A stretch of DNA of 64,000 nucleotides from Deltaproteobacteria bacterium. GTDB taxonomy: Bacteria > Desulfobacterota > Dissulfuribacteria > Dissulfuribacterales > QOAL01. The notes beneath the pieces are model-generated. The model was given only the letters and a program-made list of their open reading frames with translations. It was not told the origin of the DNA and did no database searches. This document shows, one piece after another, positions 22,760-35,583 of the stretch (its first letter is position 1; each line of letters begins with the position of its first letter). The stretch spans positions 13,520-77,519 of the forward strand of contig JALSNW010000044.1 in NCBI GenBank assembly GCA_026986785.1, given 5' to 3'. Made by a program: the position numbers and the translations under genes.

Positions 22760-25453
22760 TTAATGAAACACAGGCGGTTCTGACAGGTCAAGCCCCAGGG
22801 CAGCCTGTTCCAGAAGTTGTTGCCTCTTCCGGATAAAGCCTTTTGATTTTTCCAAGACTGCTGGCAGATCTAGGATAAGGGCAATGGAGCCGTCTCCCAG
22901 GATGGTCGCCCCTGCAAAGCCGGGCTGATCCATCAAGTAGTCCGATAGGGGTTTTATAACCACTTCCTGCTGGCCTATGAGGGCATCCACACCCAGACAG
23001 GCATCCAACTCACCAAGTCTTACCCTGACTGCAAAGAACTTCTCAGGTTCTGCAGGGGCCCCTGTCCCCCTGAAAATCCTTCCCAGCCGAATGAGGGGGA
23101 GTGTCTCCTGGCGTTTCGATATCATCTCATAGCCCTCGACACTGCTCACATCACGAGATGTGAGGCGAAAGGTCTCATAAACAGCTGAAATGGGCACCAC
23201 CATAGACTGCCTGCCCACCTTTACTGTAAGTCCCTTTATGATCGCAAGGGTAAGAGGGATCCTCAGCATGAACCTCGTGCCTTTGTCCTTTCGGGATTGA
23301 ACCACCACTGTCCCTCCTATCTTTTCTATATTTTTCTTGACCACATCCAGACCAACACCCCTTCCAGAGATGTCCGAGACAGAACCGGCAGTAGATATGC
23401 CTGGGATGAAGACCAGATTCCATATCTGCTCCTCGTTCATTTGTCTCAGGGCATCTGGGCTGATGACCCCAGAAGAAATGGCCTTCTTTACAATCAGATC
23501 CCTATCCAGCCCTCTTCCATCGTCTGATACGGAGATAATGACGAAGTTCCCTTCCTGGCTGGCAGAAATGGAAAGTTGTCCCTTGGAGGGCTTACCCTTC
23601 GTGTTCCTCTGATCTGGGGGTTCTATACCATGGTCTATGGCATTTCGGATTATGTGCTGGAGGGGATCTGCCAACTGCTCCATCACCTGCTTATCAAGGG
23701 CTGTATCCATACCTGTGAGCTTAAGCTCCACCTCTTTACCGAGTTTCTGGCACAGGTCCCTGACCATCCTGGGATATCTGTTGAACAGAGAACTTACCGG
23801 GAGCATACGCATGCGCATGACCCCATCCTGTAATTGATGTACCACCCTTTCCAACGCAGCCACGCTCTCAGTGAAATCAAGGAGCACGTTCTTCAGGGGC
23901 CTCAATTCCTGGACAGGCATCCGCCTCTTGTCCCTCCACCTGGAATACAACCCCTTCAACAAGATGGTGGATTGGGCCATGGATGATCTCAAAACTACGA
24001 GCTCTGCCACATCTTCCAAGAGATTTTCTACCTTTTCGAGATTCACCCTGACCAATTGACCCTGGTTACCTCTCGTATCCGAAGCTCCAGCAAAGCCCTT
24101 TAGGGGACTCAATTCTTTGCCGAATTCCTTGCCAAAATCATTCTCTTTATCAAGAGGTAGACCGTCTTGACCCATTCCCTCTATGGGAGCTGGCTGGGAA
24201 GCCTTGTCCTGGTGCCTCTGCTCGGCTACAGGCTCTCCATCTTCGAATATGGTATCTATAGCTGCATCGAAATCATCCAGCGACTCTATCCCAAAGGGCG
24301 AATCCGCTTCTTTCTGTCCAGATGCATCGATGTCCTGGAGACCATCCACGTGTTCCATCTCCGGGGTTTCAAACATCTCTTTCAGATGTGGCAGCCTGTC
24401 GCACAATCTCTCCCATAGGCCAATAAAAACCTCCCTGTCAAAATGGGATTCCCCGCTCAATTGTTCTGTTATGCACTCTTCCCATTCCTCGAGCAGATGC
24501 ACGACGTCCATATAGTCCATGTAGTTGGCAGAGGTCTTTAACTTGTCCACAGCCTCTTCACACTCTGAAATCCATTTCTCGTCCATATCCGCAGGAGGAT
24601 TGGCCAAAGGTGCCCCTACCTCTTTGAAAAAATCGAGAAAGATATGGTAGAGCTCTTTATCCTCCTCGGCCTCCACACCAGTGCCACCCAGATAATCGTC
24701 TGGCACCACATCATCCAGCTCTATCTCCTTGCTGAGGGCATCCCTGAGCTTAGAGCGCATCGCCCTTATGAATTCATCAGATCCATCTCCTTGGAAAGAT
24801 TCCCAAAGCCCTTGCCTGATATCACTTATGGCACTACGGAGCTTCTCCTTTCCTATGTAATTGGCCACACGCTCCATGTCCTGAAGCAGGATGTCCAGTG
24901 TACCTTGATCAGCATCTTGATCTTCGATGACCTTGACCAATTGTCCGTAAAGGCTTCTCATCTCCTGGGCAAAGATATTCAAAAGCTCCAGGTCTTCATC
25001 GGATTCTTCTGGCCCAGGATCTCCTTCTGGCCTTTGCTCGAAAACAGCACCGGCGGCCAAGGCTGTCTCTCCACCTACAGTGTTCTTCAACTGTTCAAGA
25101 AGGTCTTCGACATCCAGAGTCTCTTCGTGATTCTGTGCCACGTCCTCAAGTAGTTCCTTGAACCTGTCCACACACCTGAATATCGCATCAAATGCCTGCT
25201 GGTCCAGCCTGCGGCTGCCTTGACGGGCCTCGTCGAATAGGTTCTCGATAGCGTGGGCAAGAGCTGCTATTCTGCTCAAACCCATATAGTTGGCAGCCCC
25301 TTTTATACTGTGCATGTTCCTGAAACAATCATTTAAGATGGAGGAATCATCGGGCTGCTGTTCCAGCAGCAACAAGTTTGGCTCGAATTCCTGGAGGTTT
25401 TCTTCCACCTCCACAATAAAATCCTGCCACATTTCCTGATCAAAATCCTTCAT
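22760..25453 (-). CDS. cheA: Chemotaxis-type histidine kinase CheA with extra degenerate Hpt repeats
   Basis: FRNMHSIKG Hpt; RMLPV...YPRMVRD; HIIRNAIDHG, DDGRG, SGRGVGLDVV; C-terminal CheW-like domain. Confidence 0.95.
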   Translation of the reverse strand: MKDFDQEMWQDFIVEVEENLQEFEPNLLLLEQQPDDSSILNDCFRNMHSIKGAANYMGLSRIAALAHAIENLFDEARQGSRRLDQQAFDAIFRCVDRFKELLEDVAQNHEETLDVEDLLEQLKNTVGGETALAAGAVFEQRPEGDPGPEESDEDLELLNIFAQEMRSLYGQLVKVIEDQDADQGTLDILLQDMERVANYIGKEKLRSAISDIRQGLWESFQGDGSDEFIRAMRSKLRDALSKEIELDDVVPDDYLGGTGVEAEEDKELYHIFLDFFKEVGAPLANPPADMDEKWISECEEAVDKLKTSANYMDYMDVVHLLEEWEECITEQLSGESHFDREVFIGLWERLCDRLPHLKEMFETPEMEHVDGLQDIDASGQKEADSPFGIESLDDFDAAIDTIFEDGEPVAEQRHQDKASQPAPIEGMGQDGLPLDKENDFGKEFGKELSPLKGFAGASDTRGNQGQLVRVNLEKVENLLEDVAELVVLRSSMAQSTILLKGLYSRWRDKRRMPVQELRPLKNVLLDFTESVAALERVVHQLQDGVMRMRMLPVSSLFNRYPRMVRDLCQKLGKEVELKLTGMDTALDKQVMEQLADPLQHIIRNAIDHGIEPPDQRNTKGKPSKGQLSISASQEGNFVIISVSDDGRGLDRDLIVKKAISSGVISPDALRQMNEEQIWNLVFIPGISTAGSVSDISGRGVGLDVVKKNIEKIGGTVVVQSRKDKGTRFMLRIPLTLAIIKGLTVKVGRQSMVVPISAVYETFRLTSRDVSSVEGYEMISKRQETLPLIRLGRIFRGTGAPAEPEKFFAVRVRLGELDACLGVDALIGQQEVVIKPLSDYLMDQPGFAGATILGDGSIALILDLPAVLEKSKGFIRKRQQLLEQAALGLDLSEPPVFH

Positions 25454-25468
25454 GACACATACCTCTTG

Positions 25469-25828
25469 TTAGCGCTTGCCAAGCCCATCCATGATGTGGC
25501 TCAATCTTTCAGAATCGTCCTTTCCAAGGAAATCAATGGCCCCCAACTCGTTGGCCATAGAAATAACCTCTGGATCAGTAATCAGGCTCATGAAGAGAAT
25601 CCGCGCCTCTGGATCGACCTCCCGGATCATACCAGCAGCCTGGATACCATCCACACCTCTCATGGTAACATCCATAATCACCAGATCTGGGCGAAGCTTC
25701 TTGTAAAGGTCAAAACCTTCTGCACCATCCCTTGCAGTGCCTATCACATCGTGCCCAGCTTGTCTGACTATGTTGCCAATCCTCTTTCTCATGAAGCTGG
25801 AATCATCAATAATTAAGACAGTAGCCAT
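25469..25828 (-). CDS. cheY: Single-domain response regulator CheY
   Basis: IIDD, IMDVTM, FMS, GK; lies directly upstream of cheA. Confidence 0.85.
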   Translation of the reverse strand: MATVLIIDDSSFMRKRIGNIVRQAGHDVIGTARDGAEGFDLYKKLRPDLVIMDVTMRGVDGIQAAGMIREVDPEARILFMSLITDPEVISMANELGAIDFLGKDDSERLSHIMDGLGKR

Positions 25829-25846: not shown

Positions 25847-27268
25847 TTATTTCTTGCCAAGAAGAGGGACTATCTCTTCTGATGGTGCAATCTGCACATC
25901 TAACCCAAGGGCCTTAATCATCTTCAATGGCTCGGGATAGAGACATGTGTCCGGGTCCTGGAGTATTATGGCCCCTGCCTTGGATGCCACGCTCTCGAGA
26001 CCCTGCACCATAGCCAGATCTATCCCGGACAGGAGAACCACGGTGAGATCCTTTTCAAAGATGGAGGCTAGTCCATGAAGAAAAAGATCAGGCTCCAAGC
26101 TGTCCAGCGACATGTCTCTATAAATACCTGCTCCGGTTTCATCGGCCTCTACCTTCCATCCCTTGTCGAGCCCAGATATCCAGGCCTGGTTACTGAGAAG
26201 TGGCGCACCTGTCTCCAAGGCCTTTACGGAAAAGGAACAGTAGCTGTCCATATAATTGGCCAGAGAAGCGGAAAAATATTGGCACATCTGCTGAAACACG
26301 ATAAGGCTTGTGGACTCCCCAAGTTGGAGCTCTGGCAAGATCTTCTGGATCTCGAGCAGACCTCCAAACCCCCCCATGATTACGATCAACCTATCGGCCG
26401 GCATACCTGGCAGAGCCTTTTCCCCTGCCATCTTGGGATTTCTGGCCCGCCTGATGTTTCTTATCTGGAATTCTGTGGCGGTCTTGATAGCATTCCCAAG
26501 CCGCTTTTCAAAAAGGTCCCAGGAATCACCTGCACCTGGTTTTGATACAAAATCCACTGCACCAAGACGTAGATATTCCATGATCTTTGCCGTGTGCTTC
26601 TCATTGAAATTACTCACCAGAAGCACTGGTGCTGGAGATCGGATCATGATGTGCTTGAGGGCTATATCCCCGGCCATGACTGGCATATTTATATCCAGGG
26701 TAATAATATCTGGCCTAGTATCGTCCAAAAACTCCAGGGCCTCCTTACCGTTTCGCGCCTCTGCTATAACCTTGGCAGAGAGGTTCTCCGTCAATACATC
26801 ACGCAGCCTGGAGATAAAAAATCTGGAGTCGTCTACAACCAGTACACCGGGCACCTGTTCGACATCGGTGTCCGAGGCGGAACCCATCTCATCCTTTCTC
26901 CTAAGAGACTCTATCAAAAGAAAATTCCACGGCACTTCAATGGTATGTTCTGGGGGTGATTCGGGAAAGAAGCGAAAGGTGCCTTGATGGAGGCACATGA
27001 TCTCATAAAAGGCCTCCTCTCCTTTCTTGTCCATTATCTGTGCGTGGACCACCTCGCCGGAAGAAAAGAATATCTCTCCCCTTGCCCCTCTGGTCTGTAC
27101 CAACAGTTTCCGATCCCTGTTCTCAAGACAGGCAAGCTGTACCAAATCGGATAGGTTTATATCCACCATGAAACCACTGAAACCCGTCTCAGTACCAGTG
27201 TTTGTATCCGAAACGTTTGTTTGTATCAGTTCCTGTGAATCAAGGTCGAGAACAGTCATACCTTCCAC
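25847..27268 (-). CDS. DUF4388(PATAN-like)-REC-pseudo-CheB fusion
   Basis: GFSG..LSDLVQL..GEIFF..GEVVHA..GEEAFYEI DUF4388 pattern; intact REC (VVDD, LDINMP, KP); CheB-like C-terminus without catalytic triad. Confidence 0.8.
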   Translation of the reverse strand: MEGMTVLDLDSQELIQTNVSDTNTGTETGFSGFMVDINLSDLVQLACLENRDRKLLVQTRGARGEIFFSSGEVVHAQIMDKKGEEAFYEIMCLHQGTFRFFPESPPEHTIEVPWNFLLIESLRRKDEMGSASDTDVEQVPGVLVVDDSRFFISRLRDVLTENLSAKVIAEARNGKEALEFLDDTRPDIITLDINMPVMAGDIALKHIMIRSPAPVLLVSNFNEKHTAKIMEYLRLGAVDFVSKPGAGDSWDLFEKRLGNAIKTATEFQIRNIRRARNPKMAGEKALPGMPADRLIVIMGGFGGLLEIQKILPELQLGESTSLIVFQQMCQYFSASLANYMDSYCSFSVKALETGAPLLSNQAWISGLDKGWKVEADETGAGIYRDMSLDSLEPDLFLHGLASIFEKDLTVVLLSGIDLAMVQGLESVASKAGAIILQDPDTCLYPEPLKMIKALGLDVQIAPSEEIVPLLGKK

Positions 27269-28341
27269 TTGCTAAGCCTGCCAGCAATCTCGGCAGAGCC
27301 ACTACTTTCTGCATTAAACTTGTCCATGATATGAAGGGGCAAAAATGGGGCAAGGCAACTGGACGGGTTCTGAACGAGGAGTGTGCCTCCTCCTCTGAGC
27401 ACCTCTTTTGCTCCGGTCATGCCATGGCTGTTGTCACCAGAGACAAAAACAGCGAGACAATCCCTTCCAAATGCCTCACTGGCAGAAAGGAGGATGAGAT
27501 CGATTGCCCCTTCATTGTCTGCCTTTATCGGCCTTTGTCTTACCAGCATGTCCCACTCGGCCCCATCCTTTTCAAAGGTGCCGGTCTGGTCACTGGCAAG
27601 AAAATATACACTTCCTGGCATGAGGCGCACCTGCTTCTCTGGCACAACCAAGGGGACGGCGGCAAAGGGACGCAGATAATCTACAAAGGCATTGAGATTT
27701 TCCTTGGAGGTACCCAGAGACACGACCACGGGGATATCCATGGCCCCTGAAAGATGGGGAACTATGGAGAGAATAGACGAATACCCGCCAGTAGAGCCAT
27801 GAATTACGGCAAGTGCCTTAACGTTCTCGCCGGATCTCTCCTTGTTTTCGGTCTGCATCGATCTTCTAACCGGCCTGATGCGTAGGTAACGGGCGGCCTC
27901 CACCTGGACCCTGGAGGCCCGCTTCAGCCTGGAACATAAAAGCTCGGCCTGGCTCTTTAGCTCCTCGTCTCCGTTTCTCGTTGGCTTTTTGAAAAAATCC
28001 ACGGCCCCGAATCTGAGGGCCTCAAAGGTCACCCTGGAACCGTCTCCTGTAAATGCACTTACCATGAGAGTGGGAATAGGATACCTGACCATGATATTCT
28101 TCAACACAGTCAGGCCATTCATCCCTGGCATGTGCACGTCCAGGGTACAGACATCAAAGCCACCTGCCGAAAGCTTGTTTAAGGCCTCTTGGCCATTCAA
28201 GGCCCTTGATTGAACCTGAATCTGATCGTCTTCTCCTAATATCTGTTCCAGGGCCTTACACATCATTGGGGAATCGTCAACGATAAGGACCTTGATCTTT
28301 CCGTCAATACCCTTGCTTGCTGTCAACATCTCTTGCGCCAT
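27256..28341 (-). CDS. CheB-like protein (REC + degenerate methylesterase)
   Basis: IVDD, LDVHMP, FFKKP; GSTGG kept but His and Asp motifs lost; start uncertain (ORF opens at 28389). Confidence 0.8.
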   Translation of the reverse strand: MAQEMLTASKGIDGKIKVLIVDDSPMMCKALEQILGEDDQIQVQSRALNGQEALNKLSAGGFDVCTLDVHMPGMNGLTVLKNIMVRYPIPTLMVSAFTGDGSRVTFEALRFGAVDFFKKPTRNGDEELKSQAELLCSRLKRASRVQVEAARYLRIRPVRRSMQTENKERSGENVKALAVIHGSTGGYSSILSIVPHLSGAMDIPVVVSLGTSKENLNAFVDYLRPFAAVPLVVPEKQVRLMPGSVYFLASDQTGTFEKDGAEWDMLVRQRPIKADNEGAIDLILLSASEAFGRDCLAVFVSGDNSHGMTGAKEVLRGGGTLLVQNPSSCLAPFLPLHIMDKFNAESSGSAEIAGRLSKWKV

Positions 28342-28405
28342 ATCTGACCATCCACTGTTTTTCTCATCTTGCAAACAAAGCAAAACCATCTATCATAGCC
28401 ATCCT

Positions 28406-29476
28406 TCAGGCCTTGAACCCTTTTCTGAGGGCCAATTGTCTTGAAAAGGCCTTTAGACTATTCCAAAGGGCCTGTTCCGTATCGAAAGGCCTTGCCAGCT
28501 CCAGTTCTATAGCCTTCTTTGCGAGCCCGCCTGATGCACACTTGTCTGGAGCCAAGGCATAGACCCTGCCGCCCCTGTCAACTACTGATGCAAGACCGTA
28601 AAATTCATCCCCGGGCTGACCCCCCAATATGCAGATATTCAGGTCTTCTCCAAAGATCTCGGCAGTTTTATGCAGGAAGGTCTCCAGGCCCATAACACCC
28701 TCACCACACTCAAGATAGACCTCCCCGGCCTCATCCATCCTCATCTCAGGCAATCCATACTTTCCAACCAAGCTGCAACACCCACTATAGAGACGCTGTG
28801 CCGTTACGAAGGCCTCTGCACAACCAGTTATGGCATCGAGCTCTCTGGCATAGGCACGTAAAACAGCCCTTGACATGTCCTGGATACAAATACAGGCGGT
28901 ATGTTTCAAAGGAAAGAGCGCAGAGGCGAGACGAATGAAACTGCTTACAGCCCCTTGAAGGGCAACCACCACGAGTAGCCCCGAGGGCGCATGTTTGTCT
29001 CGATCCTTGATATGAACAGGGCGTGGATTTGTCTTGACCGCCCTCTTGATGGCCCTGGGATTTATGCCTGCTGCCACCTTCAATGTCCTTACCAGGTCTG
29101 CGCCACTGTCATGGATGTCATCCGAGACGGTTCCAGAAGGCTTTGGGAAAAAATCCACGGCTCCGAGACTGAGGGCCTCAAAGGTGATCTTGCCCTGATC
29201 AGCCAGGCCGCTCACCATGACCACAGGCAAAGGATCTCTTATCATGATATGTTTTATGGTGGTTAGCCCATCCATTATGGGCATGTCCACATCGAGGGTT
29301 ATCACATCGGGACGCAATGTCTTTATGGCATCCAAGGCCTCTTTCCCATGCTTGGCCACTCCCACTACCTCTATATCGCCCGAGTCCGACAAGATCTCTA
29401 CCAGGGCCTTTCTCATGAAGGCAGCGTCGTCTACTACCATGGCCTTTATGCTTCTACCGATGTTTTCTGCCTGCAT
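28406..29476 (-). CDS. CheB-like protein (REC + highly degenerate methylesterase)
   Basis: VVDD, PDVITLDVDMP, GAVDFFPKP; ALQGA and QDM replace ASTGG and QHM. Confidence 0.8.
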   Translation of the reverse strand: MQAENIGRSIKAMVVDDAAFMRKALVEILSDSGDIEVVGVAKHGKEALDAIKTLRPDVITLDVDMPIMDGLTTIKHIMIRDPLPVVMVSGLADQGKITFEALSLGAVDFFPKPSGTVSDDIHDSGADLVRTLKVAAGINPRAIKRAVKTNPRPVHIKDRDKHAPSGLLVVVALQGAVSSFIRLASALFPLKHTACICIQDMSRAVLRAYARELDAITGCAEAFVTAQRLYSGCCSLVGKYGLPEMRMDEAGEVYLECGEGVMGLETFLHKTAEIFGEDLNICILGGQPGDEFYGLASVVDRGGRVYALAPDKCASGGLAKKAIELELARPFDTEQALWNSLKAFSRQLALRKGFKA

Positions 29477-29477
29477 A

Positions 29478-30329
29478 TCAGCCTCCCAGGGCCTTTGACC
29501 AGCCCTCCTCGAGGTGTTTTTTCTTGTCCCGTATCTTCTTTGCTATTGCCTGCACTTGTGGGCCTTTTAGACCCAAGGCCTTTGGGAGTTTTATCTTGTC
29601 CGCAAGCCAATTGGAGCTCCAACCAATCCCCAACTTGTGACAAAGTTGATCGGCAAGAAATACCACGGCGCAAGCCTTCTCTTCAGGGCCAGCACTCCTT
29701 GGTCGATGGTGATAGCGTACAGCACTAATCATCCTCTCATTCAGATTCCATTTTGTGGCTATGTAGGCCCCTGCCTCTGTGTGACTGAATCCATATTCTT
29801 CTTCCGCCATGTAGAGGGGTATCTGCCTTTCCTCTTGGAGCTTCAATATCCTTTTGAGGTCCTCAGGGAAAAAGGAACACATCAAGAATCTTCCAATATC
29901 GTGGATTAGCCCCATGGTGAAACACTCCTCTGGCTCCATGTCACCCAAGAGGGTGGCTATCTCCATGGATACTGTTGCCACGCCTATACAGTGCAACCAC
30001 ATTTCCCTGGCAGGGAATTCTTTAAGGTCTGCGTTCTGGCCAAATGCCTGGGTCAGGGAGATCCCTATCACCAGATTGCGTACCTCTTCGAACCCCAGTA
30101 CCACTACAGCATGGGAGATGGTCTGAACCTGTCCACTCATGCCATAGGCTGGAGAATTTGCAACCTTCAATATCTTGGTAGCAAGTACCGGATCCTGCCT
30201 TACAATCACCTCGAGGCGCTTTGCCGAGGATGCAATACTGTCCATTTCCTCCAATACCTTTTGTAAGGTATTGGGCATTGGAGGTAAATCCTTTATCTTG
30301 TCCAGACGTTGTGCTATGGATGGAGGCAT
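29478..30329 (-). CDS. HDOD domain protein
   Basis: LPPMP, DPVLATKILKVANS, WLHC, GLIHDIG, HTEAG, W.L...VRYHH. Confidence 0.93.
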   Translation of the reverse strand: MPPSIAQRLDKIKDLPPMPNTLQKVLEEMDSIASSAKRLEVIVRQDPVLATKILKVANSPAYGMSGQVQTISHAVVVLGFEEVRNLVIGISLTQAFGQNADLKEFPAREMWLHCIGVATVSMEIATLLGDMEPEECFTMGLIHDIGRFLMCSFFPEDLKRILKLQEERQIPLYMAEEEYGFSHTEAGAYIATKWNLNERMISAVRYHHRPRSAGPEEKACAVVFLADQLCHKLGIGWSSNWLADKIKLPKALGLKGPQVQAIAKKIRDKKKHLEEGWSKALGG

Positions 30330-30390
30330 CTATTTTTTCCCTTTTCGGCTCTTACAGGGCATGATTCCAGCCCCTTTTCTTCTTATTTAT

Positions 30391-30417
30391 TTATCGACAA
30401 TCAAGACCAGCCCTTAA
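30391..30417 (-). promoter_or_regulatory. sigma28 (FliA)-type promoter for the HDOD-cheB-cheY-cheA operon
   Basis: TTAA-15 nt-GTCGATAA on the minus strand vs consensus TAAA-N15-GCCGATAA. Confidence 0.65.
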
Positions 30418-30446
30418 ATTGTCCGACCTCATAAGCCATCGATCCT

Positions 30447-30473
30447 TCAATTTTTTCCACGACTGTCCGATAA
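30447..30473 (+). promoter_or_regulatory. sigma28 (FliA)-type promoter for the mglBA operon
   Basis: TCAA-15 nt-TCCGATAA. Confidence 0.65.
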
Positions 30474-30540
30474 GGCCTTTAGAGCCTTCCGGTAGGATTC
30501 AGAACCTTGCTCGGTTAAAAAGTTTTGAGGTCAGAAAATC

Positions 30541-30942
30541 ATGGCAGACATTATCTTGACTGGTCCTGCGCTCGAACAAGCGAGAACTCAGATTGATGAG
30601 GCCCTCGTACAGGCAGGAGTCCATACGGTCTTATTGATAGATCACGCAGGAAACGTAGTTGCCAGTTGTGGTCAAAACAGAAAGGACCTGGACATGACAT
30701 CCCTTGCCGCCTTGGCCGCTGCAAATTTTGGTGCTACATCGCAAATGGCCAAGCTTATTGGCGAAGACGACTTTTCTCTGCTGTTTCACAAGGGGAAGAG
30801 AGACAGCATCCACTTTGCAAAAGTGGGGCAGGAGATGATTCTCATAACCATTTTTGGCGATGAGGTCTCCCTCGGACTCGTAAGATTAAGGGTGGCAGAA
30901 TTGACGAACAACATAGAAAAGATATTTGGACTGGGTAAATAA
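30541..30942 (+). CDS. mglB: Roadblock/LC7 protein MglB (GAP)
   Basis: LLIDHAG, SLAALAAANFGAT..MAKLIGE..F..LFH.G, SLGLVRLR; adjacent to mglA. Confidence 0.92.
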   Translation: MADIILTGPALEQARTQIDEALVQAGVHTVLLIDHAGNVVASCGQNRKDLDMTSLAALAAANFGATSQMAKLIGEDDFSLLFHKGKRDSIHFAKVGQEMILITIFGDEVSLGLVRLRVAELTNNIEKIFGLGK

Positions 30943-31560
30943 ATGGCACTGATAGACCTCAGCAAAAGGGAGGTGCACTGCAAGATCGTCTATTATGGAC
31001 CAGGGCGGTGCGGCAAGACAACCAATCTCCTCTACATATATAATTCTATGAACAGTAATGCCAAGGGCAAGATGCTCACCATCGAGACCAAGGGAGATAG
31101 AACCCTCTTCTTTGACCTCCTTCCCCTGAACCTTGGAAAGATAAAAGGCTTTGACATCAGGATCCAGCTATATACCGTGCCTGGACAGGCAATCTATGAG
31201 GCTACCAGGAAGCTCGTCCTCAAAGGGGTCGATGGTCTTGTTTTCGTAGCGGATTCTCTGCGCGTGAGAAGATCCAAGAACATAGAGAGCCTGGAAGACC
31301 TGAAGAAAAACCTCCGGGATTACAATTTAGATATTAATAACATCCCTCTCGTTCTCCAATACAACAAAAGAGACCTTGCCAATTCCCCCATACCCACCTT
31401 GAGCGTGGAAGAGCTGGAAACAGACCTGAATAGGGAACTTGGTGTGGAAGCGTTCCAGGCAGCCGCTACCAAAGGACTGGGGGTTTTCGAAACCCTTAAG
31501 GATATCAGTAAGAAAACCGTGCGCTATGTAGCCACGAAACACCTTGTAAAACCAAAATAG
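30943..31560 (+). CDS. mglA: Small Ras-like GTPase MglA
   Basis: CKIVYYGPGRCGKTTNL, DRTLFFD, LYTVPGQ, GVDGLVFVADS, QYNKRDL. Confidence 0.96.
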   Translation: MALIDLSKREVHCKIVYYGPGRCGKTTNLLYIYNSMNSNAKGKMLTIETKGDRTLFFDLLPLNLGKIKGFDIRIQLYTVPGQAIYEATRKLVLKGVDGLVFVADSLRVRRSKNIESLEDLKKNLRDYNLDINNIPLVLQYNKRDLANSPIPTLSVEELETDLNRELGVEAFQAAATKGLGVFETLKDISKKTVRYVATKHLVKPK

Positions 31561-31580: not shown

Positions 31581-33197
31581 GTGAAAGAAAACAACTCCAT
31601 CCCTGAACCAGAAATCTTTACCTCGGAAATAGAAGATACCATAGACGACCTCTTCAAACCCTCCAAAAAAATAGAGATCGATCCTCTGACCCAGGAGATT
31701 AAAGAGGTTGCAAAAGAGGCAGACGATTCTCCTGTGGAATTTGAACTTGCCCAAGAAGGAGATGAAATAAAACCAGAAGAGCCAACAGCCCTCTTGCTTG
31801 AAGATCAAGAACCCCAGGACAACCAAGAGGAAGAGGAGGCCTTGCTCGAACTGGAACTCGAGGTGGAAGAGGAGGCAGAAGAGATAGCTGTAGAGATGGA
31901 GCCGACACCTGAAGACACTGACCAGGGAAATAGGGTAGGGGAGATACTTCAGGAGCTGAAACAGCAGATCTTTACCATCGAATGGGAGGTGACAGAGCCC
32001 CAGATAGACCAGACCCTTGCCTTGGTAGCAGGACTCCTTGGCGCCCCAGAAATCAGGAATCAGGCCCCGGCACGTTCCCTGGTAGAACTCATGCAAAAGG
32101 TCCTCCAACACATCCAATACAGACCTGAAAAGGTCTCTGCCACTGCTCCATCGGTACTCAAAAAAGCCGTAGCCTTTCTTTTGGATTGCCATTCAGGCAA
32201 AAGTGTATCCGATGACAGGGCAGAGGGCATAGCCCAGGAACTAAAGGCCCTGTTTGACAAGGCCCAGCAAAAGGAGGAGGCCACTGTCCTGGAGAACTTT
32301 CTCCTCTTGGGCGAGAAAACAGGAGAAGACCAGGGGGCTGAAAAGGCAGAAACCACCTCCGAGATGCAGGGAGATGGTGCACCAGCCCTGGGTCCTGCTT
32401 CAACCGAAACAGAGACAACCACGGAGACAACGGGCAGTCATACCAGCAAAGAGGATCTACTCCCGGGAGAAGCCAAAAGGATCCTGCAGGCCCATCTTGT
32501 AGAGATAAAAAGATGTATAAACCGCATCGAACCCTTGGAAAAGCTCCTGGCCAAGACCCCTGGAATGGAAAAACTCCACAGTTTTCAGCATGACATACGC
32601 CAGAGACTGGAAAGGCAGCTTGAGGAACTTTCCAACCACTTCTTCGAGGCTATGGAGTTGGAACTACCTGAACCACCTCGCACCAAAACCGATTCTGAGG
32701 AATATGCCAGGGACATGAACCTTACTCCATGCCCGTGGGCCGAGCTTTTCACCATCACTTTGGATGGCATGGAGATAGGTTTTCCTGCAGACGAAATAGC
32801 CTATGTCTCAAGCCCTCCTTGGCATTCAAAGTCAGCAATCAAGAAGGCCCATAGCCTGGAGTTAAATAAACTAAAGAGCTGGCCATGGTCAAAACTCAAG
32901 GGAATGTTCAGGGGCAAACTTGCCGACTTTGACGAATCCAGCCTTTCTTCCATGAGCTTTCCTATAATCCGTCATATTGGAGGCCAGGAGCTACCTGTTC
33001 CCTCCAATTTCACAATAATACTCTTATTCAATGGACAGACAGGTGTAGCCCTTTTGACAGGTGAAAAACCAATAAGGATAAAGATCCCCAAGGATGCAAA
33101 ATGGACGAAGGAACAAGCAGATGGCCTTGAAGCTGAAATAACCACCCATGGCAATGTCATCAAAGTGGCCTCGGCCAACTCATTGAAGCAGGAGTAG
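31581..33197 (+). CDS. Acidic hypothetical protein with possible degenerate CheW-like C-terminal domain
   Basis: Glu-rich low-complexity linkers, helical blocks; C-terminal LFTITLDGMEIGFPADEIAYV...FPII reminiscent of CheW strands (inference). Confidence 0.7.
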   Translation: MKENNSIPEPEIFTSEIEDTIDDLFKPSKKIEIDPLTQEIKEVAKEADDSPVEFELAQEGDEIKPEEPTALLLEDQEPQDNQEEEEALLELELEVEEEAEEIAVEMEPTPEDTDQGNRVGEILQELKQQIFTIEWEVTEPQIDQTLALVAGLLGAPEIRNQAPARSLVELMQKVLQHIQYRPEKVSATAPSVLKKAVAFLLDCHSGKSVSDDRAEGIAQELKALFDKAQQKEEATVLENFLLLGEKTGEDQGAEKAETTSEMQGDGAPALGPASTETETTTETTGSHTSKEDLLPGEAKRILQAHLVEIKRCINRIEPLEKLLAKTPGMEKLHSFQHDIRQRLERQLEELSNHFFEAMELELPEPPRTKTDSEEYARDMNLTPCPWAELFTITLDGMEIGFPADEIAYVSSPPWHSKSAIKKAHSLELNKLKSWPWSKLKGMFRGKLADFDESSLSSMSFPIIRHIGGQELPVPSNFTIILLFNGQTGVALLTGEKPIRIKIPKDAKWTKEQADGLEAEITTHGNVIKVASANSLKQE

Positions 33198-33201
33198 AGA
33201 T

Positions 33202-35583
33202 ATGGCTGGCTTCCAGATACAGACTGAAGATTTGGCAGGCACCGATCCTGTGAGCCATGCAGAGCTGGTTGAGAGAAAGATTCAGGAAGCAGATCTATAC
33301 CTAAATCATGGCCTCATAGAAGAGGCCAGGGCGATATTGGAAGAGATACTGGCAGTACTTCCAGATGACACCGACGAGAAACTCAAAATTCTTCTGGAAG
33401 ACAAGCTGAAAGAGCTCTCAAAGAGGGATGCCCTGGCTGTAGAAAACAAAAAAGAGGGCCAAAAGGGCGAATTCTCCGAGCATGAAGAATTCCTGGAACA
33501 CTATAACAATTGCCTGGGCCTTATAGAGGCGGGTTTTTTCTCAGAGGCAGTAGAGGAGTTGAAACTGCTCGAGGAAAAGAATTTCCGCGCCGGCGAGATC
33601 AGGATAAAGATCGGCCAGCTTTATCTCAAGCTGGATATGCCATTCGATGCCATAGAATACCTGGAAAAAGGTCTCAAGGACCAGGAACTGCCCGATGATA
33701 TCAGATATGAGGCCCTCTATCAATTGGCCCTCACCCAGGAAAAGACAGGATCCGTAACAAAGGCAGCCTCGACCCTGGAACAGCTCGTCAAGCTGAACAA
33801 AGACTTCCGCAATGCAAAAGAAAAACTGGAGAGCCTAAGCCAGTCGGCCCAAAAATACGGTAGATTCTATTATCTCATCAGGACTGGCATCCTGGAGGAA
33901 GAACAGCTGGAGAGGGCGAAAGAACTGGCCAAACAATCGAAAAAGTCCATTGAGTCCGTATTGATCAATCAATTCGGTATAGAAAAGGATGAAATAGGGA
34001 ACTCTCTCAGCGAGTATTATAGGTGTCCTTTCATAGAATTCAACGAACTCGAGGTTGGCACCACACCCAAATGTATCTCTGGTATAAAGGAACACTTTTT
34101 CAGGACCACTGCTTGTGCCCCAATCAAGGAAGAAGCTGGCATGCTCCTCATAGCCTTGGATAACCCCCATGATCTCAGCAAGATCGACAATATCCAGAGG
34201 GTACTGAAGGCCAAAAGCTTTGAATACGCAGTGGCCCTCAGAGAAGATATAGATAAATTCATAGACTATTTTTATGGCAAATACAGCGTTGGTGGTGATG
34301 CTGAAGACGTATTCGAACAACTGGAGCTGATAGAAGAGGAAGAAGAGGAAATCGAAGAAGACGACAGCCTGGCATCTGATGCGGATAGCGTCGTCGTCCA
34401 GATGGCAAACCGGATAATTGAAGATGCATATACCAGGGGCGCCTCCGATATCCATATAGAAAGTCTCACGGGCAAGAGAGGGGCCTTGGTGAGATACCGC
34501 ATCGATGGCGACTGCTTGAGATATCAGAATATTCCATTGAATTATAAAAAGGCCTTGGTCTCCAGGATCAAGATCATGGCCAGCCTGGATATCGCGGAAA
34601 AAAGGCTACCCCAGGATGGAAAGATCAAATTCAGGACCAGGACAGGCCGTGTCATTGAACTGCGTGTGGCCACTCTCCCCACCACGGAAAACAACGAGGA
34701 TGTCGTCTTGAGGATACTGGCATCGTCTGAGGCCATGCCCATCGACCGCATCGGCCTCTTGGAAGACAACCTCAAAAACCTGAAAAAACTGATAGAGATG
34801 CCCTACGGATTGATACTGGTTGTCGGGCCAACGGGCTCTGGTAAGACTACGACCCTACATGCTGCCCTTGGCCATATCAACAGGCCGGAAAAGAAGATTT
34901 GGACAGCTGAAGACCCTGTTGAAATCGTACAGGATGGCCTGAGACAGGTACAGATAAAATCGAGCATTGGCCTGACCTTTGCAAGGGTACTTAGGGCCTT
35001 TTTGAGGGCAGATCCTGATGTAATAATGGTTGGAGAAACAAGGGATGAAGAAACGGCGAACACCGTGATAGAGGCCTCACTCACCGGTCATCTGGTCTTC
35101 TCTACCCTTCATACCAATTCGGCCCCCGAGACAGTAACCAGGCTCCTTGGCATGGGAATGGATCCGTTCAATTTTGCAGATGCACTCCTTGGCGTCCTGG
35201 CCCAGCGTCTGGTCAAGAGATTGTGTCCCAAGTGCAAAGAGGCCTATGAACCAAACCAAGAAGAAAAGGAACGCATATTATACGAATACGGGGAGCATCC
35301 AAACAAGCCCATCTCCCTGGAAGACCTGGATGGCATCACCCTTTACAGACCAAGAGGCTGTGGTTTCTGCAACAAAACGGGCTATAAGGGCAGGATGGCA
35401 ATTCACGAACTTCTGGTATCGGATGATGGCCTGAGAAAGCTCATCCAGAGCAAAAGCCCGGTGATGGAGATAAGAGACCACGGCCTTAAAAATGGAATGC
35501 GTACCCTCAAACAGGATGGAATACACAAGGTGCTCATGGGTGATACAGACATGAAGCAGATCCTTGCAGCCTGCATCAGATAG
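33202..35583 (+). CDS. PilB/GspE-family secretion ATPase with N-terminal TPR repeats
   Basis: TPR region aa ~25-215; ASDIHIE, EKRLPQDG, GPTGSGKTT, EDPVE, MVGETRD, TGHLVFSTLH, CPKC/CGFC zinc site. Confidence 0.93.
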   Translation: MAGFQIQTEDLAGTDPVSHAELVERKIQEADLYLNHGLIEEARAILEEILAVLPDDTDEKLKILLEDKLKELSKRDALAVENKKEGQKGEFSEHEEFLEHYNNCLGLIEAGFFSEAVEELKLLEEKNFRAGEIRIKIGQLYLKLDMPFDAIEYLEKGLKDQELPDDIRYEALYQLALTQEKTGSVTKAASTLEQLVKLNKDFRNAKEKLESLSQSAQKYGRFYYLIRTGILEEEQLERAKELAKQSKKSIESVLINQFGIEKDEIGNSLSEYYRCPFIEFNELEVGTTPKCISGIKEHFFRTTACAPIKEEAGMLLIALDNPHDLSKIDNIQRVLKAKSFEYAVALREDIDKFIDYFYGKYSVGGDAEDVFEQLELIEEEEEEIEEDDSLASDADSVVVQMANRIIEDAYTRGASDIHIESLTGKRGALVRYRIDGDCLRYQNIPLNYKKALVSRIKIMASLDIAEKRLPQDGKIKFRTRTGRVIELRVATLPTTENNEDVVLRILASSEAMPIDRIGLLEDNLKNLKKLIEMPYGLILVVGPTGSGKTTTLHAALGHINRPEKKIWTAEDPVEIVQDGLRQVQIKSSIGLTFARVLRAFLRADPDVIMVGETRDEETANTVIEASLTGHLVFSTLHTNSAPETVTRLLGMGMDPFNFADALLGVLAQRLVKRLCPKCKEAYEPNQEEKERILYEYGEHPNKPISLEDLDGITLYRPRGCGFCNKTGYKGRMAIHELLVSDDGLRKLIQSKSPVMEIRDHGLKNGMRTLKQDGIHKVLMGDTDMKQILAACIR

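Follow-up and report, generated by a model that had tools for sequence, protein, structure and literature searches.

Three conserved CheB paralogs without a catalytic triad probably mark a distinct, non-flagellar chemosensory pathway

Why would a bacterium keep three adjacent genes for CheB, the textbook feedback enzyme of chemotaxis, when none of them encodes a complete catalytic triad? This question is raised by a gene cluster in the 64,000-nucleotide stretch analysed here (the window), which comes from contig JALSNW010000044.1 of a Deltaproteobacteria bacterium of the order Dissulfuribacterales (our source genome, G000). An initial annotation, made from the sequence alone, had described three tandem CheB paralogs in which an intact receiver is joined to a dead methylesterase, and had proposed that they are maintained as scaffolds or phosphate sinks. 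We find that the trio is conserved, and that it probably marks a distinct, non-flagellar chemosensory pathway. We name the paralogs A, B and C:

28406..29476, minus strand: pseudo-CheB A, 356 amino acids; receiver and CheB fold; triad columns L/D/D
27256..28341, minus strand: pseudo-CheB B, 361 amino acids; receiver and CheB fold; Ser183 present, His and Asp columns occupied by G/H
25847..27268, minus strand: pseudo-CheB C; DUF4388/PATAN domain, receiver and CheB fold; triad columns G/Q/A

All three reading frames are full length and free of internal stops, as had been stated; the start of C is probably the ATG at 27259, which overlaps the stop of B, and the database protein for C has 470 amino acids. 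Both Pfam Response_reg and Pfam CheB_methylest score above cut-off in each paralog, the latter at 25.2 (A), 76.2 (B) and 68.8 bits (C) versus 230.6 bits for an intact CheB of the same genome; with the NCBIfam model for CheB (NF001965), the trio scores 163.8, 196.2 and 165.1 bits, below the 293-bit cut-off. Databases annotate all three as CheB, a label that hides their missing triad. AlphaFold models of B and C (mean predicted local distance difference test scores of 88.9 and 89.4) both find full-length CheB as their best match, with the two domains packed as in that enzyme: the model of B superimposes on Salmonella CheB (1A2O) with Z 38.2 and a root-mean-square deviation of 2.8 over 332 residues, and that of C matches 1A2O with E 1e-24. 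A is assigned to the CheB fold by profile match only (E 4e-66). Pairwise identity between A, B and C is just 26–27%, which argues against a recent tandem duplication.

Two features had escaped the initial annotation. One is the DUF4388/PATAN domain of C (residues 32–127, N-terminal to the receiver, 68.9 bits), which is the only match for this domain in the genome. The other is the intact CheB, a single further copy on contig C7 (motifs GVSTGG/VQHMP/GMGHDG) that sits within a complete cheY-cheB-cheR-cheA-cheW-MCP cluster (MCP, methyl-accepting chemotaxis protein). Between cheW and the receptor of that canonical cluster lies a DnaJ-like gene (G000:C7:4009-5025).

Using the C7 protein as the alignment reference, we read the Ser, His and Asp columns as L173/D200/D290 in A, S183/G210/H306 in B and G300/Q327/A419 in C; the triad of a solved CheB, that of P. 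atrosepticum (6YMZ), is S165-H191-D287 (PMC7698151; this paper and those cited below are drawn on in excerpt). The motifs that had been quoted (ALQGA/QDM, GSTGG, VSLGT, SGDNSHG and GGFGG/QQM/SGIDLA) are all present, and the proposed comparison with Salmonella CheB, run on B, aligns ‘vslgt’ with QHM and ‘sgdnshg’ with TGMGNDG of 1A2O. The description of the methylesterase as dead stands in that no paralog has a full triad; it needs qualifying for A, whose third column still holds an Asp, within a loop that is poorly conserved. The claim that every receiver retains DD, D, S and K is confirmed by the alignment: these residues are D16-D17/D62/S89/K112 in A, D22-D23/D68/S95/K119 in B and D146-D147/D192/S219/K243 in C.

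The same pattern holds across the order, for which we assembled 106 copies once short and truncated sequences had been removed (A kept from 34 of 38 loci, B from 35 of 37 and C from 34 of 37, plus the window's own copies). Ser and His never occur together (0/106), and the phosphorylatable Asp is always present (106/106). The Ser column is variable in A, Gly in 35/35 copies of C, and Ser in 26/36 copies of B, with Thr, Gly or Ala in the remaining 10; His is found in its column once only, in an A copy that lacks Ser, and in 0/36 copies of B. Among 75 more distant copies, from which rows duplicating other loci and canonical CheBs were excluded, the phospho-Asp is again invariant (75/75) and Ser-His-Asp occurs in four, all B-type; the close relatives L092 and L091 differ in this respect, one having Ser-His-Asp and the other a Tyr for the His. 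Our control set of 18 canonical, intact CheBs (the G000 copy and 17 from 20 fetched loci) is partly circular, these proteins having been chosen by motif. We regard it as very probable that the trio proteins are not conventional CheB esterases, and from their sequences we would predict no methyl-group removal by them.

Are these genes then maintained? That they are, as the initial annotation had proposed, is borne out by purifying selection, deep lineages and conserved gene order. An ortholog of C is found in 36 of 40 relatives within the order (E <= 2e-66), and gene order is the same wherever the contig shows the locus. The proposed check on the ratio of nonsynonymous to synonymous change (dN/dS, Nei-Gojobori) gave pooled values of 0.21, 0.17 and 0.14 for the dead domains of A, B and C, many within-genus pairs being saturated at synonymous sites and the pooling being confined to pairs with a proportion of synonymous differences (pS) < 0.6 (4, 6 and 4 of 9 pairs, respectively); the receivers gave 0.06, 0.04 and 0.09 from unsaturated pairs. 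The highest value for a single pair is 0.48, for the dead domain of A in a near-saturated pair. In the same genome pairs, dN is 0–0.08 for the active esterase domain and 0.01–0.32 for the dead domains: constraint on the latter is relaxed but real. Moreover, paralog-specific motifs are conserved, TGGYxS and EGxxD in B and GGxGGLLE in C.

In trees that were quick searches with SH-aLRT (approximate likelihood-ratio) support only, the order's A, B and C each group with relatives that belong to other families in the phylum, and 11 intact CheBs separate from 34 class proteins (SH-aLRT 99); the B-type proteins form a grade and not one supported clade. Judged by sequence, the trio is three old lineages shared across the phylum. 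(A profile of the A clade at E 1e-70 also catches ordinary CheBs, in 103/401 genomes, and was not used as a class marker.) Named homologs come from Dissulfurimicrobium, Electrothrix and Electronema, all sulfur-cycling Thermodesulfobacteriota, and the isolate genome of Desulfatitalea alkaliphila (L139) carries the full trio; this named isolate could make the pathway testable. In one genome (G040; L065, L066), the whole trio is present twice.

What do these proteins work with? The following genes flank the trio in the window:

22760..25453, minus strand: CheA, with an Hpt domain that has its His, an Hpt-like helical region, and dimerisation, ATPase and CheW domains; no P2 match
25469..25828, minus strand: stand-alone receiver (CheY-like), missing from three order-level and two distant cassettes
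29478..30329, minus strand: HDOD-domain protein, encoded at the head of the likely operon
30541..30942, plus strand: MglB (Roadblock/LC7), divergent from the che genes
30943..31560, plus strand: MglA-type small GTPase, with Ras/Arf matches and a position after mglB
31581..33197, plus strand: 538-amino-acid protein without a Pfam match; its language-model look-alikes have CheW and some have Hpt
33202..35583, plus strand: PilB/GspE-type assembly ATPase with N-terminal tetratricopeptide repeats (TPRs) and an MshEN domain

The arrangement is likely an operon, HDOD-A-B-C-cheY-cheA, divergent from mglB-mglA-(538 amino acids)-TPR/MshEN-PilB; no promoter or terminator was detected by a scan of the gap between the divergent units (30200-30700). 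From its matches and its position, we take the GTPase to be of the MglA type. The adjacent CheA is the likely phosphodonor of the trio. It has no receiver domain of its own, and the His motif of its Hpt domain is present in 29/30 orthologs. The five cassettes from which cheY is gone (G030, G034, G039 and two f52 loci) keep the pseudo-CheBs. On the other side, mglB-mglA adjoin the trio in 29/30 order loci where that side is visible. Within the order, the 538-amino-acid protein always lies between mglA and pilB, also where the che genes are lost; it is possibly a degenerate CheA/CheW that links the array to MglA. Other PilB/GspE-like ATPases are also encoded in the genome. One locus (L045, G026) has an extra 212-amino-acid CheA-like fragment between cheY and cheA, a position at which distant clusters often have a HAMP protein of ~240 amino acids.

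Outside the order, the clusters combine cheA and cheW with a long dCache-HAMP receptor and two or three CheBs that lack the triad, often with DUF4388; cheY is usually present as well. A zinc-ribbon ParA-like ATPase, a HAMP protein, TauE and an NMT1-type ABC transporter recur in or beside them (for example L113:4648-9970 and L118:11643-16762). The same pathway (B, long receptor, cheW, cheY, cheA, A, ParA-like) also appears at L124:1027-13460, in a metagenome-assembled genome titled Thiohalomonadaceae; a range beyond the phylum rests on this one Pseudomonadota-labelled assembly, with transfer or mis-binning as possible explanations.

These in-cluster receptors led us to a candidate input for the cassette in the window: a receptor of 797 amino acids (G000:C26:14773-17166), encoded with cheW and a periplasmic binding protein in an operon on another contig (G000:C26:13826-17722; L191). 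All 20 in-cluster receptors tested match it best among the G000 receptors, and we consider this operon the likely sensing input of the cassette. Its CheW was assigned as partner by position beside the receptor, most distant in-cluster CheWs matching another G000 CheW better. The receptor is unusually long: 257 residues from membrane to tip versus 175–185 for the other six G000 receptors, or ~59 heptads by our own count, and each arm has about 80 extra residues. A receptor gene adjoins the cassette in 3 of 39 order-level loci. The long receptor and the trio travel together: the receptor is present in 37/40 relatives, and the three that lack it (G025, G027 and G035) also lack the trio and the cheA at the locus, with mglA and pilB kept. 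In G024, the receptor is present and a contig break falls at the trio locus; in G007 (L199), the receptor gene is split by a stop and the trio is intact. Across the 401 genomes of the phylum that were sampled, the receptor is found in 39, all of which, by hand comparison, fall within the 118 that have a C match at E <= 1e-25, a cut-off that also catches ordinary CheBs.

If the esterase is dead, is the receptor methylated at all? A consensus methylation motif (taken from PMC12632253) was found in 0/28 order-level long receptors, in 0/3 from cable bacteria, and in 9/22 distant long receptors, at scattered positions; as controls, 5/6 other receptors of G000 and 7/7 other receptors of G431 contain it. 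No cheR was found in 39 order-level loci, nor in 25 distant loci with receptor and cheA both in view (stretches up to ~21 kb). The exception is instructive: four loci of one family (f23) combine cheR with two pseudo-CheBs, and beside their cheA lies a further CheB, with GASTGG/QHM/GMGxDG. In these loci an intact CheB accompanies CheR, which argues that the pseudo-CheBs are retained for another role.

Several observations point to type IV pili as the output. We selected 26 carrier genomes outside the order (16 and 10, from two sets of matches): PilT is over cut-off in 26/26, MglA is found in 25/26 and flagellin-family genes in 11/26, with no flagellin-family match in the other 15. The cassette CheA is the only CheA found in seven of these carriers, six of which have no flagellin match. 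MglA is present in 39/39 genomes with the long receptor versus a baseline of 229/401, kin not being independent. G000 itself encodes flagellin, PilT and PilU, and so its two CheA systems plausibly divide the work, that on C7 serving flagella and the trio pathway pili. In Synechocystis, phototaxis is reversed by PATAN domains, which bind PilB1 and PilC (10.1101/2021.06.11.447907); PATAN genes have been found close to mglA/mglB, and MglA is a target of Frz (PMC4316618). In Myxococcus, a TPR protein links MglA to PilB (PMC11580455), and the TPR-PilB ATPase of the window could merge the roles of an SgmX-like MglA effector and PilB. Pilus steering through MglA is thus the predicted output, from gene context and the PATAN literature. 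A complex prediction for the PATAN domain of C (26–132) with the N-terminal region of PilB (15–365) scored 0.01 (mark 0.32), which speaks neither for nor against binding. Myxococcus SopA, initially considered as a DUF4388 protein, was dropped: the excerpt of PMC11580455 gives it no known domain.

The pathway extends to cable bacteria. The closed chromosome of Ca. Electronema halotolerans (G428) has the order B-receptor-cheW-cheY-HAMP-cheA-A-ParA-like-ABC-HAMP-TauE-C, with triad columns A/Y/D, S/E/D and G/N/D in its pseudo-CheBs. Three cable-bacterium genomes each have two receptors and two CheAs, with no flagellin found. Their second system (L283, L286) has a multi-Hpt CheA with a receiver, a degenerate CheW and a two-HAMP PilJ-like receptor; from this domain layout, we presume it to be PilJ/ChpA-like. 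In Ca. Electronema aureum GS, cryo-electron tomography has revealed polar arrays with a depth of 35.8 ± 1.5 nm, and marine cable bacteria have pilus-like filaments that emerge close to arrays of this kind (10.1101/2023.05.24.541955). Receptors of 40 heptads are 24–25 nm and those of 34 heptads ~22 nm (PMC7184735). By arithmetic, the long receptor would give an array about 33–35 nm deep. For the PilJ-like receptor, whose second HAMP we take to add ~4 nm, we obtain about 29–31 nm. Array depth favours the trio pathway without amounting to proof, the imaged species being a different one from the three genomes analysed.

We hypothesize, with moderate confidence, that the triad-less trio serve as adaptors gated by phosphorylation, in a non-flagellar pathway whose predicted role is to steer type IV pili via MglA/MglB. 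The sequences show loss of the triad in proteins that retain, under selection, both receiver and fold. In the mechanism that we envisage, the ~59-heptad receptor, CheW and binding protein encoded on C26 would provide the input, as orthology and co-loss suggest, and would act via the adjacent CheA; to judge from the conserved residues, CheA would then phosphorylate the three receivers and CheY. By analogy with CheB, phosphorylation would open the interface between receiver and esterase fold, so that the old receptor-binding face could become a protein-binding surface. Gene context and the PATAN literature suggest that C would couple the signal to the pilus motor or polarity module, and that A and B would tune or oppose it. 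Of the two roles proposed in the initial annotation, adaptor or scaffold is the one that the data favour, and the pure phosphate sink is disfavoured: C has a PATAN output domain, and the cheY-less cassettes keep their pseudo-CheBs.

Some findings weigh against our hypothesis. The dead domains often change 2–5 times faster in amino acids than the active esterase domain in the same genome pairs. The genomes that lack the trio retain mglA, pilB and PilT, from which it follows that the pilus module is independent of the trio. Outside the order, mglA adjoins the cluster in some loci only (L103, L104, L118, L119 and L295), and the cluster has ParA-like, ABC and TauE neighbours just as often. The carriers form about six related groups, such that co-occurrence is not independent, and the PilT count has no phylum baseline. 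Finally, the f23 receptors, from clusters that do have CheR, are also without the methylation motif, and a missing motif is therefore no proof of an unmethylated receptor.

How do other explanations fare? The natural partner of CheB is the receptor, and the phosphorylated dead CheBs might bind the long receptor coiled coil or CheA and damp the kinase, giving methylation-free adaptation: feedback, and not output. Trio and long receptor are inherited and lost together, each receptor arm has its ~80 extra residues, and all 28 order copies lack a consensus methylation site. We nonetheless think this unlikely for the trio as a whole, given that two pseudo-CheBs remain where CheR is present and an intact CheB handles adaptation, that pseudo-CheBs are the sole receivers in the five cheY-less cassettes, and that C bears an output-type PATAN domain; A and B could have a feedback role, with C as the output. 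Alternatively, the trio may indeed be adaptors, with an output other than pili (gene expression, a second messenger, transport or cell-division placement). In this order the operon begins with an HDOD gene; ParA-like, HAMP, TauE and ABC/NMT1 genes turn up repeatedly in distant clusters, those of cable bacteria among them, and the second, PilJ/ChpA-like system of cable bacteria could run their pili. Set against the PATAN domain, the synteny with mglBA and TPR-PilB in 29/30 loci where that side is visible, and the presence of MglA in 39/39 carriers of the receptor, this appears to us rather improbable.

It is quite improbable, in our estimation, that the proteins are pure phosphate sinks in which the receivers alone matter and the C-terminal domain is a folded lid. 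The receivers are indeed 1.5–5 times more constrained than the dead domains, that of A being the least conserved; yet dead-domain dN/dS is far below 1, surface motifs are conserved paralog by paralog, A-, B- and C-type lineages persist across the phylum, and the cheY-less cassettes keep pseudo-CheBs with no local CheY to drain. B raises a further possibility, that of a hydrolase with a rebuilt active site and possibly another substrate: beyond its frequent Ser (26/36), Glu277, Asp281 and Asp303 are conserved, and four distant B-type proteins have Ser-His-Asp. We give this little credence, bearing in mind that the Ser is replaced in 10/36 copies, that the His is never found (0/36), that there is no conserved general base, and that one Ser-His-Asp copy has a relative with Tyr for the His (L092 and L091). 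As for decaying cheB duplicates, the C copy of G006 is visibly split by an internal stop, one case among 37 order loci with a C match, and amino-acid change is faster than in active CheB; this explanation is refuted by the selection and distribution data, namely the shared gene order in 36/40 relatives, purifying selection and deep clades, and its probability is negligible.

A bolder proposal goes beyond the adaptor hypothesis, and we offer it tentatively, as possible and not as probable: that this is an undescribed pathway class in which an adaptation enzyme was triplicated, inactivated and made into an output layer; that it is paired with an unmethylated ~59-heptad receptor and steers MglA-polarised type IV pili in sulfur-cycling deltaproteobacteria; and that it builds the ~36-nm polar arrays beside the pili of cable bacteria. 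If this were true, the trio pathway would be the prime candidate for the cable-bacterium taxis system, with array height as its measurable prediction; being one of just two CheA systems found in the three genomes, it provides a short gene list for filament navigation. More generally, a CheB that was apparently copied three times and kept non-catalytic across a phylum would be a clear case of a bacterial signalling pseudo-enzyme. A literature search, whose coverage did not extend to the class-defining papers and supplementary class tables, returned no description of triad-less CheB paralogs or of this pathway; the pathway may belong to one of the rare Wuichet-Zhulin classes F11–F17.

How, then, does the pathway compare with known systems? 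With CheB methylesterases (Salmonella 1A2O, P. atrosepticum 6YMZ; PF01339), the trio shares receiver and esterase fold, the phosphorylation residues and a neighbouring cheA. It differs in lacking Ser-His-Asp, in falling below the NF001965 cut-off, in comprising three divergent copies, in having no cheR in the cassette, and in the fusion of PATAN to one member. The Geobacter alpha-group che cluster is likewise deltaproteobacterial, contains an HD-family gene and lacks a receptor gene; in contrast, it has cheW and cheR, neither of which is present in the cassette, and the excerpted account reports it in Geobacteraceae only (PMC2577667). In Pseudomonas Pil-Chp (Tfp class), several receivers under one kinase also control pilus polarity, but ChpB is a working methylesterase that is thought to be unphosphorylated, the reverse of the trio (PMC12632253). 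Furthermore, PilJ has methylation motifs, and the kinase of the trio pathway has no C-terminal receiver. From Frz of Myxococcus, with its soluble receptor, its CheA-CheY hybrid and its functional CheR/CheB pair, the trio pathway differs in having a CheA without a receiver, a very long membrane-bound receptor and dead CheBs. Frz is alike as a CheA pathway, each likely feeding an MglA/MglB switch and type IV pili (PMC4316618, PMC11580455), although it is encoded away from mglA (PMC4316618). The PatA-type (PATAN-REC) regulators of cyanobacterial Tax systems similarly combine PATAN and receiver in a CheA pathway without CheR (10.1101/2021.06.11.447907). Those systems have no CheB at all, whereas in C a dead CheB domain is joined to PATAN-REC, and two further dead CheBs and a ~59-heptad receptor accompany it. 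On these comparisons, the pathway would resemble a cross of PatA-type systems and Frz-MglA, with a make-up that matches neither.

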